Origin: an uncultured Chloroflexia bacterium
GTDB taxonomy: Bacteria; Chloroflexota; UBA6077; JACCZL01
Length of the DNA stretch: 64,000 nt
Assembly: GCA_963765765.1 (NCBI GenBank)
Contig: CAVXYC010000020.1
Span: 1 to 64,000 of the forward strand
Direction: 5' to 3'
Below, piece by piece: positions 1-9,693 of the stretch. Made by a program: the position numbers and the translations under genes. Under the pieces are notes generated by a model. That model was not told where the DNA came from. It made no database searches and was given only the letters and a program-made list of their open reading frames with translations. Every line of letters starts with the position of its first letter. Positions within the stretch are counted from its first letter, which is position 1.

Positions 1-738
1 TGGCCGAGCTGCTGCTGGACCACTACCCCGATGAGCGCGCCGAAGCGCTGGAGCACCTGGACTTCGCTATCGGCGAGGTGCAGCAGATGAAGATGCAGCC
101 CATGCTGGAGCGAGCACTGCGCCGCAAGCTCCACCTCCAGGGCGTCGATTCCGTCTTACCCAGCACATCGATCGACGCAGTGGCGATCGCCGTGCAATCG
201 GAGCGCCCCAATCTGCAGCCCCACGCCGCGCCCGACGGCACCGTCACCTTGCTCTTCACCGACATCGAAGATTCGACGGGCTTGACCGTGCGCCTGGGCG
301 ATCAGCGCTGGCTGGAGATCTTGCGGGCGCACCACGCGCTCATCCGCCAGCAGGTGCACGATCATGGCGGATTCGAGGTCAAGTGCCAGGGCGATGGTTT
401 CATGCTGGCCTTCGGCAGCGCGCGTCGCGCGTTGGAGTGCGCGGTGGCCATTCAGCGGGCCGTCGAAGCCGGCAACTGCGGCCCACCCGAGACACCTATC
501 CGCGTCCGCATCGGGCCTGCACACCGGCGAGGCGCTCAAGGAAGCCGATGACTTCCATGGCAAGCACGTGGTCCTCGCCGCGCGCATCGCCGATCAGGCT
601 CATGGTGGCGAGATCCTGGTCTCGGCGCTGCTGAAGGAGCTGACCGGAGCAGTGGCGGATGTGCAGTTTGACGAGGGCCGTGACGTGGCGCTCAAGGGAC
701 TGGACCGGCCGCACACCGTGTTACGCGGTGCGTGCTGA
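1..738 (+). CDS. C-terminal part (TPR end + class III nucleotide cyclase) of kinase-STAND-cyclase paralog 1; 5' part outside window; one apparent frameshift
   Basis: [13 protein letters not shown]...MKMQPMLERALRRKL, then cyclase motifs [22 protein letters not shown] and, in the shifted frame, [26 protein letters not shown]. Closely similar to the C-termini of the two downstream copies. Confidence 0.9.
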
Positions 739-740
739 GT

Positions 741-5263: not shown

Positions 5264-8200
5264 GATCGACAGCGTCGGATCCGAGAGGAGCTGGACGACG
5301 GTGCGGGACCATGCCCAGCACGTGCTGGCGCTCGATCCCGAGCAACGTCGATGCGCTGCGCTTTCTCGTGGCCATCGCCGAGCGCGCGCCTTGGCGATGC
5401 CGCGTCGGCAACCGGCCCGGGGCATCAGCCGCCCCGATGCAGCCGGCCCCCAAGGCTTTCGCCAACGGCCGGTACCAGGTGTCGCGACTGCTCGGCGAGG
5501 GGGCGAAGAAGCGTGTCTTCCAGGCCCACGATACCCGACTGGGCCGGGACGTGGCCTTCGCGCTGATCAAGACCGACGGGCTGGATGCCACCGGCCGCGA
5601 CCGCCTGCAGCGCGAGACGCGAGCCATGGCCCGACTGGGGACCATCCGCAACATCGTCACGGTGTTCGACCTCGGCGACGATCACGGCCAGCCCTACCTG
5701 GTAAGCCAGCTCATGGCCGGGCGGCAGCCTGGATCAGCGGCTGGCGCAAGCATCGGAGCATCGACTGCCGCTGGAGCAGGCGGTAGCGATCGCCGTGAGA
5801 GGTGTGCCGGGCGCTGGAGCATGCGCACGCGCACAGCGTGATCCACCGTGACCTCAAGCCGGGCAACATCTGGCTCACGGATGACGGGACAGCCAAGCTG
5901 GGGGACTTTGGTCTCGCGGTAGCCCTGGATCAGACCCGCCATACCCAGCCCGGGATGATGGTCGGCACAGTCGCCTACATGGCGCCCGGAACAGGCCATT
6001 GGGTGGCGGAGTCGATGCGCGCAGCGATCTCTACAGCCTGGGCTGCGTGCTGTACGAGATGGTCTGCGGCCGACCGCCGTTCGTTGGCGACGAGAGCGTG
6101 GCGATCATCAGCTCAGCACCTCAATACGCCGCCGGTGAATCCGTCCTGGCACCGTCCCGATATCCCGCCGGGCCTGGAAGCGCTGATTCTCCGCTTGCTG
6201 GAGAAGGATCCGGGCAAGCGGCCTCGAGTCGCGTCGGACGTCTCCAGGCATTGGCGGCCATCGACCTTGAAGCATCCCCGCCGCGACCTCGAGATCGAGC
6301 GGTCCCCGTCGGCGCAGTGCGCAGGACGCGCAGCTCTACCAGCAGACGTTCGTGGGTCGCGAGGCAGGAGGTCCGCCAGATCCAGGCGGCCTATGACGCT
6401 GCCGTCTCCGGCCAGGGCAGCCTGGTGACGGTGGTGGGCGAGCCGGGCATCGGCAAGACGGCACTCTGCGAGCAGCTCGCCACCTATGTGGCCGTGCGCG
6501 GGGGCGAACGCTGGTGGGCCACTGTTACGGCGAAGGCTCCACATCGCTCCCCTATTTGCCGTTCGTCGAGGCGCTCCGCATCTACGTGCTGGCGCGCGAA
6601 CCGGATGCGCCTGCGCAGCGAGCTCGGCCGGCGCCGGGGACCTGGCCCGCATCGTCTCCGAGGTCCGCGAACGCCTCCAGGTCGAGCCGCGACCCGGGCG
6701 GTGACCCGGAGGAAGACCGCTGGCGACTCCTGCAAGCGGTCACCGGGTTCCTGCGCAATGCCAGTCGCGTGCAGCCGATCGCTGCTCGTGCTGGAAGACC
6801 TGCACTGGGCGGATCGCGGCACGCTCGATCTCCTGCTGCACGTGGCCCGCAATCTGGCCGGCGCCCGGCTGCTCTGGTGGTCGGCCACCTACCGCGACGT
6901 CGAGGTGGACCGCGCCCACCCGCTGTCATCCGGCCCTGGCCGAGCTGCGGCGCGATCCGCGACCTTCATGCGCGTCGCCCTGCGCGGGCTCACGGTGGAC
7001 GAAGTCCATCGGATGATGCAGTCTGATTCGGGGACAGGAAATTCCCTGGAGCCGGGCGGAAGCGATCCACCGTCAGACCGAGGGCAATCCACTGTTCGTC
7101 CAGGAAGTGCTGCGCTACATCGTCGAGGAGGGCCTCCTCATGCGCGAGGGCGGCCGCTGGGTGCGCACCGACGCCGGGCGAGCCGGACGCCGGCATACCA
7201 GAGGGGCTGCGCGATGTGATCGGCAAGCGGCTGACCCGGCTGAGCACGTCGTGCAATCGGGTGCTGGCCGTTGCCGGCGGTCATCGGCCGGGAGTTCCGC
7301 CTGGATGTGCTCCAGGGGGTGGCCGCCTGCCCGAAGAGGACTTGTACGCGGCACTGGAGGAAGCCCGGCCGTGGCGGTGGTCGAGCAGCGATCGGCAATG
7401 GGCAGCGGTGTCACGCTTCCGCTTCGCCCACGCCTTCTTCCGCCAGACCCTGTACGAGGAGATGTTCGTGCCGCGCCGGATCCGCTTGCACCAGCAGGTC
7501 GCCCGGGTGCTGGAGGAGGTCCACGCGCGGCGGCTGGAGTGAGCACGCGGCCGAGCTGGCCGAGCACTTTGCCCAATCCACGGAGCCGGAGGATCTGGCC
7601 AAGGCGCTGCACTACAGCGAGCTGGGGGCCGAGCGGGCGCTGAGCGTCTATCGCCTATGCGGAGGCGGCGCGGCTGCTGGAACAGGCGTTGCAGGTGCAG
7701 GATGTGCTGGAGCCAGACGATCACACGAAACGGTGTGATCTTCTGCTGGCGCTGGGCCAGGCGCTCATGCCGGCCGGCGAGCCAGAGCGGGTGAGCGACG
7801 AGATTGCCTCGCAAGCGCTGGCGCAGGCCGAGCGCGCGGGCGACGCCACGCGTGTGGCCAGGGTGTCGCGGCTGGCGCTGGAGGCCCTCCATCGAAGGCT
7901 GGCCGCGCTGGCGCCGGCACTCCAGCGTGGCGGAATGGGCCGAGCGGGCAGATGCGAGCCGGCCGACCCGGCAGTCCCGGAGCGAGCCTACGCCGATGTG
8001 CGATGGGACGGCTCCGCTCGCTCAGCAGCGCCACGAAGAGGGCGTCATCCTGCTCGCACGGGCGTGGAGCTGGCGCGAGAGCTAGGCGACGCGGAGCTCT
8101 TTGCGACCGCTGGCTGGCAGGCGATCCGGTTTCAGATGACATCAGGAACGAATGGCGGGACGCTGTAGCGCTGGCGGATGAGCTGCTGGCGCGACCGCGC

Positions 8201-9693
8201 GACGGGGTATCGCTTCGCACCCAGGGACAGATCCTGGAATTCTGCGGTAGCGCGCTGCTGGTGAAAGAGGACCGGGAGGGTGCGGTTCAATGCTGGCACG
8301 ATCTCGCGGAGTTGGCTGAGCGGAGCCGTGATCCATTCATTCGGCTGAACGCGCTGAGCTACCAGGCCGTCAGTCGCGATGTTGGACGGTCGGCTGGATG
8401 AGGCGGCCGAGCTAGGGCGCCGCCTGAGAGAACAGGGGGAGGAGCTCGGCGCTCCGCAGGTGGGCATGGGTTTCGCCGCGACGCGGCTGGACCGGCACTG
8501 CCCGCTGCTGGGTCGGAACGACGAGTGTCGCGAGTGGTGCAAGCATCAGCGCATGGGATGCCCAGGTGCGGCACTGTCCCACGCGCTCGTCGGAGACCGC
8601 GAGGAAGCGCGGAGGCTGCTTGACGATTGCCCTCAACCGAACCGCTACGGATGCTCCCGAGCCGAGCGGCTCGCGCTTTACCGGAGCTTCTCAACATACT
8701 CGTTCGATGCTTGGAGGCCGCGATTGTGCTTGAAGACACATCGCTGGTCCAGGTGCTTGCCCGTGAACTTCCGAGCGGCGCCGGCATTCCACCGGCCGAT
8801 CGCGGGCTAACCTGCCTCTATCGTCACCTGGGGGCCGCAGCGGCACTGCTCGGGGACACGAAGGAGGGGGTGGCTTGGTACCGGCGGGCGATTGACGCGT
8901 GCGAGCGAGTTCGCAGCCGTCCCGACCTGGCGCTGAGTCGCCTGGGGCTCGCCGAGCTGCTCCTGGATCATTATCCGGATCAGCAAGCCGAGGCGCTGGA
9001 GCACCTGGAATTCGTTATTGCCGAATGCAGGGCAATGCACATGCAGCCCGCGCTCCAGCGGGCTCTTCGACGGAAGTTGCAGCACCAGGGCATCGATGAC
9101 GAGCACTCCCGAGACGTCTATCGACGCGCTCACGCTGACCGTGCGGGCTGAGCGACCAGACCTGAGGCCGCACGCCGCACCGGATGGTACCGTGACGCTG
9201 CTCTTCACGGATATCGAAGACTCCAGCGGACTTGACCGTGCGACTCGGCGATCATGCGTTGGCCCAGGAGATGCTGCGCGCGCATCACGCGCTGATGCGG
9301 CAGCAGGTCGCACGATCACGGCGGGATTCGAAGTCAAATGCCAGGGCGATGGCTTCATGGTGGCCTTCCGTAGCGCTCGTCGGGCGCTGGACTGCGCGGT
9401 GGCCATTCAGCGGGCGGTCGAAGCGGACAACCCGATGCACCCTGAGTCAGCCATTCGCGTGCGCATCGGTCTGCACCCGGCGAGGCGCTCAAGGAAGCCG
9501 ATGACTTCCATGGCAAGCCGTGGTCCTTGCGGCGCGCATCGCGAATAAGGCCCAGGGGGGAGAGATCCTGGTGTCTTCATTGCTGCGCGATCTCACTGAT
9601 ACGGGAGCGGGCATCAGTTTCGATGCGGGTGACGACATCGAGCTGAAGGGGCTGGTTGGAACACAGCGGGTGTTTCGCGTGCTTCGGGGTTGA
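5217..9693 (+). CDS. Ser/Thr kinase - STAND NTPase - TPR - class III cyclase, paralog 3 (many apparent frameshifts)
   Basis: Starts [85 protein letters not shown]; ends [16 protein letters not shown]-stop at 9691-9693. Confidence 0.85.

Follow-up and report, generated by a model that had tools for sequence, protein, structure and literature searches.

Within the first 64 kb of contig C20 (hereafter the window, whose position 1 is the contig start) in the metagenome-assembled genome (MAG) of an uncultured Chloroflexia bacterium, we examined a head-to-tail array of paralogous genes occupying bases 1–9693. Our analysis makes it probable that these genes encode cytoplasmic STAND NTPases of ~1,490 amino acids (aa) from the MalT/PknK clade, and that the many frameshifts interrupting them are errors in the MAG consensus; it is plausible that each protein would drive two catalytic outputs—a kinase and a nucleotide cyclase—from a single switch. 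The errors most likely cluster in GC-rich, weakly supported sequence at one end of the contig, and the genes themselves are probably intact in the organism. Placed among its relatives, the array belongs to a known, widespread, uncharacterised family seen through error-laden sequence. The source assembly (G000) comprises 6.49 Mb in 33 contigs at 61% GC, with a completeness of 91.8% and a contamination of 6.85%.

Each copy was read in a frame-aware manner with a purpose-written protein-to-DNA aligner allowing skips of 1 and 2 nt, using as reference an intact homologue of 1504 aa (P0002) in which Pfam places Pkinase at residues 88–337, AAA_16 at 375–556 and Guanylate_cyc at 1340–1500; an intact locus (L001) run as a control gave 0 frameshifts. 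Copy 1 aligned over nt 30–702 to P0002 residues 1271–1492 only (71% identity, 1 frameshift), copy 2 over nt 755–5215 to residues 5–1503 (62% identity, 33 frameshifts and 1 stop, at an unmatched codon), and copy 3 over nt 5217–9681 to residues 1–1501 (62.8% identity, 36 frameshifts). The whole-length alignments of copies 2 and 3 bear out the domain order proposed in an initial annotation made from the letters alone—kinase, STAND P-loop, putative repeats and C-terminal class III cyclase. Its picture of three head-to-tail copies, with only the cyclase end of copy 1 inside the window, holds as well, since the start and stop codons at the junctions could be read directly (Table 1). The motifs it had quoted, GNPLF included, were all found, together with others such as QGDGF. 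The open reading frames (ORFs) that it implied survive in part: anatomy and coordinates stand by homology, whereas translatable genes are not present in the assembled sequence because of the frameshifts in all three copies. As assembled, no copy forms one uninterrupted reading frame; the longest stop-free frames in 1–9693 (635 and 711 aa) both leave the true frame in part, and a Pfam scan of frame 1725–3629 returned no domain.

Several details qualify the anatomy of copy 2. An additional frameshift lies between its ATG and the codons for a helical RIQRQIDR segment at 755, and its 3' end is uncertain, as the last frame runs on to a TGA at 5261–5263 and the homologue ends near 5215; the start of copy 3 overlaps the end of this last frame. 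Its kinase motifs are present through to APE, and the winged-helix part of its nucleotide-binding oligomerisation domain (NOD), with GNPLF, extends to about 3150 (approximate). The paralogy is also visible at the DNA level: bases 4489–7844 match bases 3–3379 with 76% identity over 3.4 kb, far beyond chance.

Table 1. Features of the array and of the adjoining integrase and tRNA genes in the window (positions in nt; residue numbers refer to P0002 unless stated otherwise)
Feature	Coordinates	Strand	Basis and remarks
Copy 1, C-terminal end only (linker + class III cyclase)	1..738	+	Cut by contig start; 1 frameshift near 513; TGA 736–738
Copy 2, full length by homology	741..5263	+	ATG 741; 33 frameshifts in alignment, with another between 741 and 755
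Copy 2 Hanks-type Ser/Thr kinase domain	1014..1766 (approximate, +/-15 nt)	+	P0002 Pkinase mapped by alignment; Pfam Pkinase on piece 943–1326
Copy 2 AAA_16 (STAND NOD) P-loop core	1890..2421	+	P0002 AAA_16 375–556 mapped by alignment; Walker A GEPGIGKT, Walker B
Copy 2 helical-repeat (TPR-like) sensor region	3160..4640 (approximate)	+	Residues 801–1300; most diverged part
Copy 2 class III cyclase domain (Ma1120-like)	4723..5206 (approximate)	+	P0002 Guanylate_cyc mapped by alignment; FTDIE, KCQGDGF kept
Copy 3, full length by homology	5217..9693	+	ATG 5217, TGA 9691–9693; 36 frameshifts
Copy 3 kinase domain	5473..6230 (approximate)	+	Pfam Pkinase from aa 590 of frame 3706–5838 (= nt 5473); alignment anchors
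Copy 3 AAA_16 P-loop core	6365..6874	+	Pfam AAA_16 60 bits (cut-off 32.6), aa 161–330 of frame 5885–7216
Copy 3 class III cyclase domain	9186..9681 (approximate)	+	Anchors: residue 1354 at 9228, residue 1501 at 9681; motifs
Tyrosine-recombinase (phage-type) integrase	13409..14651	+	Split over at least 2 frames (13409–14242, 13998–14651)
tRNA-Arg (CCT)	14686..14762	-	ARAGORN; 3' end toward integrase
tRNA-Leu (CAG)	15132–15218		ARAGORN; next tRNA beyond tRNA-Arg

The same assembly carries a second array of four head-to-tail copies on the minus strand of another contig (C23:29,031–47,083), with 29, 17, 12 and 9 frameshifts, and the closest paralogue of window copy 2 is the third of these (84% DNA and 78% aa identity). 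A further, truncated family remnant at C1:18,706–20,488, matching P0002 residues 140–753 at 53% identity, has as many in-frame stops as frameshifts (3 each) and resembles a true pseudogene. Among the ways in which it could fail, the initial annotation had named indels that prove real and copies produced by the assembly, and this caveat applies in part: the arrays are real, with two full and one partial copy on C20, four on C23 and the remnant on C1, and the indels are most likely assembly errors.

The interruptions carry a distinctive signature. Across the six full copies of G000, we counted 136 frameshifts and 0 stops in 8,679 matched codons, with 4 stops at unmatched codons. Simulated neutral decay predicted 3.6, 10.6, 17.7 and 34.4 stops at 1, 3, 5 and 10 substitutions per indel, respectively, so that the observed pattern requires indels to be at least as frequent as substitutions, with a P of 0.03 even at a 1:1 ratio; in bacterial mutation spectra, substitutions are several-fold commoner than indels. 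Moreover, codons lying within 8 positions of a frameshift show 74.0% identity to P0002 vs 77.1% for the remainder, and breaks fall inside perfectly conserved motifs, e.g., directly after GEPGIGKT. The C1 remnant offers a contrast, with stops as numerous as frameshifts. Taken together, these features indicate that the frameshifts are very probably consensus indel errors of the MAG rather than real mutations.

The assembly shows the same defect elsewhere. We scanned G000 with a frame-switch detector, a Viterbi model of dicodons for which 680 long ORFs served as the training set. It returned 1,168 switches of frame on the same strand with no stop close by; per 10 kb, such frameshift-like events numbered 4.14 in the outermost 5 kb of contigs and 1.47 at more than 80 kb from an end. 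A phase profile of GC content at third codon positions was also tried as a detector and dropped because of its noise (median amplitude across the genome, 0.15). The most heavily affected region is the last 60 kb of contig C15 (C15:762,000–824,451, with locus L015 at C15:805,001–824,451), which has 70% GC on a 61%-GC contig and in which frames switch every 100–400 nt. Pfam recognised a housekeeping row there—rpsB, frr, uppS, cdsA, dxr, rseP and bamA—of which rpsB gave a full-length match and frr, uppS, dxr and bamA are broken: one frame piece holds half a ribosome recycling factor together with part of a prenyltransferase, DXPR_C is spread over two pieces, and the POTRA and Omp85 parts of bamA lie in different frames. 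These breaks are assembly errors. Another rpsB gene (C17:34,286–34,934, ~50% identical to that of C15) is split over two frames near 34,733, so frameshift errors occur at normal GC content too. Among 25 segments with at least 66% GC, 11 lie at or within ~7 kb of a contig end (C2, C10, C14, C15, C16, C19, C20, C21, C23, C26 and C33), and several GC-rich segments coincide with the bins richest in frameshift-like events (C21:1–10,000, C23:475–485 kb and C26:85–90 kb). Elsewhere in G000, 56 ORFs of at least 900 aa are whole, the longest reaching 3,006 aa; the frameshift problem is thus patchy. Near-identical sequence for base-by-base error calling was sought in metagenomes: a sensor piece specific to one paralogue (8624–9097) found no relative there, and a NOD piece (2404–2886) found relatives at no more than 86% aa identity, too far for this purpose; copies from a genome of the same genus (G001) are only 70–84% identical at the DNA level.

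Drawing from the frameshift-corrected readings, the window proteins can be assigned to the STAND NTPases (AAA_16, MalT/PknK-like) with a predicted Hanks kinase and a predicted Ma1120-like class III cyclase. The AAA_16 match exceeds the Pfam cut-off both in P0002 (105.8 bits) and in window piece 5885–7216, and Walker A GEPGIGKT and Walker B LVLEDLH(W/E/D)AD are present in all six full copies of G000. For the kinase, P0002 scores 163.3 bits, whereas the window fragments reach 22.7–26.9 bits, under the cut-off of 31.7 only because frameshifts cut them; the catalytic motifs (the VAxK lysine, HRDxKxxN, DFG and APE) are kept in six out of six full copies. The cyclase domain of P0002 scores 58.7 bits with Guanylate_cyc, and the copy 1 piece 3–551 scores 36.6 bits (cut-off 21.9). 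Cyclase motifs FTDIE, K-C-Q-G-D-G-F and DDFHG are kept in 7/7 copies, the first two at sites identical to Ma1120; we take these sites to hold the aspartates that bind metal and the Lys/Asp pair conferring ATP selectivity in class III cyclases.

Conservation is distributed unevenly along the protein. Mean pairwise aa identity among the six full copies is 79% in the kinase, 77% in the NOD and 73% in the cyclase, and falls to 42% in the sensor (P0002 residues 801–1300) and 33% in the N-terminal 87 residues. Likewise, the ratio of nonsynonymous to synonymous substitution rates (dN/dS) between paralogues, 0.27–0.43 overall, is 0.18 for the kinase, 0.27 for the NOD, 0.18 for the cyclase and 0.50 for the sensor. 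The kinase, NOD and cyclase have evolved under purifying selection, which also favours consensus error over decay as the source of the frameshifts, and selection on both outputs argues that both are used. The extreme N-terminus differs among family members: many cyclase-bearing homologues (L017, L038 and others; P0093, P0103 and P0117) begin with a double zinc ribbon (DZR, Zn_Ribbon_1 or DUF7577) at the place where the window copies and P0002 have the helical RIQRQIDR segment, suggesting that this module is exchangeable.

Class III cyclases are active only as dimers, and this requirement can be accommodated in a mechanism with a single switch. Ligand binding by the variable sensor would release the NOD and permit nucleotide exchange, and the brought-together cyclase domains of a resulting oligomer would form class III dimers producing cyclic AMP (cAMP). 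The same oligomer would bring the kinase domains together for trans-autophosphorylation, so that one switch might set off phosphorylation and cAMP synthesis both; joint firing of the two enzymes on oligomerisation is plausible. Such oligomerisation through the NOD, described for MalT-type STANDs in PMC4381067, would here be ATP-dependent. Under this scheme, the copies in the array would differ in the specificity of their sensors and have their output modules in common.

Several observations weigh against this account. The frame-switch detector is home-made and uncalibrated against finished genomes, and it saturates where switches are dense. Furthermore, the error status of the indels is a probability drawn from assembled sequence, and oligomerisation, kinase activity and cyclase activity are sequence-based predictions. 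The tetratricopeptide repeat (TPR) label of the sensor rests on TPR_12 matches of homologues that stay below the cut-off (24.4, 16.8 and 24.0 vs 30.1 bits). In the same-genus genome G001 (650 contigs), one of four partial copies (L011) contains 2 frameshifts and the other three contain 0, and family members in other records (L040, L062, L067, L085 and L090) show single frame changes, so occasional real breaks do occur. Finally, the C15 tail with its second rpsB gene must derive from another organism or a chimeric join, and by the same token the array might not belong to the 61%-GC host. As a separate observation, three family members from other assemblies (L061, L067 and L092) have their frame change in a narrow stretch around P0002 residues ~575–600, just past the AAA_16 core, and this could be a natural split-gene form rather than an error.

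The last of these concerns leads to the alternative that the array is the sequence of a rarer, GC-richer organism, mis-joined to C20 or mis-binned, which we consider unlikely even though it accounts for several features of the locus. GC content is 65–72% in bases 1–10,000, a level like that of the C15 tail, vs 58–62% in the remainder of the window, nearly half of the high-GC segments of G000 sit at contig ends, and the C15 tail, together with the contamination estimate, indicates that foreign or chimeric sequence is present in the MAG. Against this, 57 of 59 other loci show a higher GC content in the family genes than in the flanking sequence (by 3.3 points on average and by as much as ~11), which makes such enrichment a trait of the family; the C23 array is internal to a 484-kb contig that continues for 29 kb at one end of the array and for more than 430 kb at the other; and G001 has tandem copies too.

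The surroundings of the array also provide a natural route by which a GC-rich island could have entered this host. As the initial annotation had proposed, a tRNA-linked integrase lies near the array: its gene begins 3.7 kb from the array and ends 35 nt before tRNA-Arg, and the orientation of the tRNA, with its 3' end facing the integrase, makes this a likely island attachment site. Pfam places Phage_int_SAM_3 and Phage_integrase positions 3–69 in one frame of the integrase, and Phage_integrase positions 92–170 in another. No second partial copy of tRNA-Arg that could serve as an attachment repeat was found in G000; the far end of the island is beyond the contig start. The broken zone on C20 runs from the contig start to the integrase, and genes past the tRNAs are whole—a pattern that would fit an island at tRNA-Arg with less read support than the chromosome, for instance if only some strains carry it. 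We also observed paralogous integrases on C20 (~72–73, 478–479, 548–549 and 609–611 kb) and on C1, C10, C14, C15 and C17, several of which match in more than one piece.

To gain a broader view of the family, we searched with window piece 5885–7216; of the 8,000 candidates scored, 4,191 proteins reached E <= 1e-3. PF00069, PF13191 and PF00211 are combined in 11 among the 120 proteins listed (1,397–1,504 aa). Matches to P0002 stop near residue 1302, before the cyclase, in most of the 80 loci from genomes and in 77 of the 79 from metagenomes; residue 1490 or beyond is reached in 14 of the former, and 2 of the latter bear the cyclase. A cyclase-less kinase-NOD-TPR form of ~1,300 aa is thus very common and dominates the relatives. 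The cyclase-bearing form occurs in Chloroflexota, Dehalococcoidia, Acidimicrobiia, Solirubrobacterales and other MAGs, and intact ORFs of 1474–1506 aa with the full architecture are found in Chloroflexota and Actinomycetota MAGs, some in tandem. Four such relatives have ORFs of 1,496 (L017), 1,506 (L038), 1,477 (L039) and 1,474 aa (L053), with Pkinase, AAA_16 and Guanylate_cyc confirmed by Pfam in the three that were scanned, and in L017 a second copy begins directly after the first. The wholeness of these relatives likewise favours consensus error in the window copies. Among the matches listed for 31 related genomes, the cyclase end is reached only in G000 and G001, and two genomes of the same order have intact cyclase-less genes.

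These results bear on the novelty of the arrangement. The initial annotation had treated it as potentially new and suggested a search for the same domain order; that order does exist elsewhere, with the cyclase-bearing form in the minority, and the claim of novelty is not sustained, as the architecture is already intact in other genomes and in two ESM Atlas clusters (278 and 61 members) and TIGR03903 likewise joins kinase, cyclase and NOD. A count of copies in relatives, also suggested there, showed that tandem pairs and triplets of the cyclase-less form are frequent (L024, L058, L061, L076 and 7/79 metagenome loci). A Deltaproteobacteria MAG (L024) carries three cyclase-less kinase-NOD-TPR genes in tandem, each in a single frame, which indicates that family arrays are common outside the lineage of the window. 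Our literature search found no paper describing Pkinase+AAA_16+TPR+Guanylate_cyc—the supplementary data of PMC7159879 may list such architectures—and no experimental study of the family.

Such arrays invite comparison with nucleotide-binding leucine-rich repeat receptors (NLRs), and an immune-like function had been put forward for this locus. According to this interpretation, the copies form an NLR-like repertoire against phages or in conflict, in which diversified TPR sensors detect invaders and the kinase and cAMP trigger defence or growth arrest; it is compatible with the molecular mechanism proposed above. The tripartite effector-NOD-repeat layout, the tandem paralogues, the proximity of the C20 array to a tRNA-adjoining integrase and a sensor more diverged than the outputs all fit this idea, and PMC7159879 reports that conflict systems of multicellular bacteria, Chloroflexi among them, have cyclic nucleotide (cNMP) cyclases and serine/threonine kinases as effectors. 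Nevertheless, we regard it as improbable. In PADLOC (PADLOC-DB 2.0), the strong matches of P0002 (PD-T4-6, mad6 and similar models) span only kinase residues ~82–357, no model covers the NOD, sensor or cyclase, and neither 4 neighbouring ORFs nor frame 1725–3629 returned any family. Across 15 cyclase-bearing loci, we found no conserved neighbour; a deaminase, an alcohol dehydrogenase and an aldo-keto reductase are the few that recur, and the protein thus looks self-contained. The region around the second array (C23:10–70 kb) has no tRNA, and the window integrase has no match anywhere on C23. Additionally, sensor dN/dS stays below 1, and PknK, a characterised relative, regulates growth according to PMC4381067. 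The immune-like array is, for these reasons, not borne out. A wider version, in which the intact, tandem, sensor-diversified and partly island-borne dual-output STAND receptors of Chloroflexota and Actinomycetota constitute an NLR-like immune or conflict system, strikes us as a long shot; if true, it would define a class of bacterial NLRs with second-messenger synthesis, coupled to phosphorylation, as the effector.

It is also quite improbable that the frameshifts are real, which would make the arrays dead and the locus a decaying island whose kinase-STAND-cyclase paralogues and integrase have been inactivated. This explanation draws on the breakage of all 7 copies on two contigs, the splitting of the neighbouring integrase, the clearly dead remnant on C1 and the 2 frameshifts in one G001 copy. 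Dense breakage moreover ends at the tRNA, beyond which an amidohydrolase gene (15265–16311) and a major facilitator superfamily gene (16329–17633) are whole. Decay is, however, difficult to reconcile with frameshifts that left no stop in any matched codon, with catalytic motifs whole in all six full copies and conservation unchanged beside the breaks, and with housekeeping genes of the C15 tail broken in the same manner.

With consensus error preferred as the source of the frameshifts, the main value of this locus lies in a warning on data quality: dense frameshifts in GC-rich contig ends make ordinary genes look like pseudogenes or false ORFs, and claims on the locus need re-polished sequence. 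Beyond this, the family joins two catalytic outputs under purifying selection to one STAND switch and tends to form tandem arrays whose sensors evolve fast. Should intact homologues (the 1,496-aa ORF of L017, for one) prove to couple both activities to one ligand, they would offer a simple bacterial model for NLR-type oligomerisation driving enzymatic effectors; such a demonstration would also tell defence from environmental sensing as the role of the arrays.

Among the curated families of NCBIfam, P0002, P0001 and P0042 all match TIGR03903 (TOMM system kinase/cyclase fusion protein) best, with scores of 300.5, 301.3 and 307.1 bits (E about 1e-89) against a curated cut-off of 705.75. This family of ~1,270 positions resembles the window proteins in uniting a kinase, a cyclase-homology domain and a related NOD in one protein, and differs in that the best-matching stretch covers the NOD only (profile 482–960). 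Its cyclase presumably follows the kinase, whereas that of the window proteins is C-terminal; the ~185 more positions that the profile has between kinase and NOD than P0002 fit this order. Membership in this family, with the genes serving a peptide natural-product cluster, is hardly credible despite the best match and one Atlas neighbour cluster bearing the name, given scores far below the cut-off, an alignment confined to the NOD, the other domain order and the lack of recognised genes for ribosomally synthesised and post-translationally modified peptides beside the array (Pfam found no TOMM cyclodehydratase or precursor genes among 10 ORFs in 9868–20984, and the flanks of other loci were scanned only in part).

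Avs and bNACHT are prokaryotic NLR-like antiviral STANDs, and the window proteins have in common with them the effector-NOD-repeat logic and the diversification of paralogues, but differ in their AAA_16, MalT-like NOD; the likeness to the PADLOC kinase systems PD-T4-6 and mad6 is confined to the generic kinase fold. A STAND NOD, putative TPRs and a class III cyclase are also shared with the cyclase-AAA_16-TPR proteins (e.g., the 156 members of Atlas cluster 'Class 3 adenylate cyclase/TPR repeat protein'), which, unlike the window proteins, have no kinase; in these proteins, of the mycobacterial Rv0386 type, the cyclase is usually N-terminal. For the cyclase domain itself, a close solved structure is Ma1120 from Mycobacterium avium (PDB 4wp3, 4wp8 and 4wp9), which aligns with P0002 over 171 residues (4wp3, E 1.8e-44) and is identical to it at FTDIE, KxQGDGFM, GxHxG and AAR, motifs that the window copies retain; Rv1900c/LipJ (1ybt) is also near. 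The solved Ma1120 chains comprise 171–210 residues, whereas the window cyclase ends a protein of ~1,490 aa with kinase and NOD. Ma1120 is a class III adenylyl cyclase according to PMC4215837, and PMC4381067 puts MalT and PknK into one STAND subfamily and reports inducer-dependent assembly. By description, PknK-type STAND kinases, exemplified by Mycobacterium tuberculosis PknK, share with the window proteins the N-terminal Hanks kinase, the AAA_16 NOD and the putative helical-repeat sensor; the class III cyclase at the C-terminus and the short helical segment at the N-terminus are additions of the window genes.

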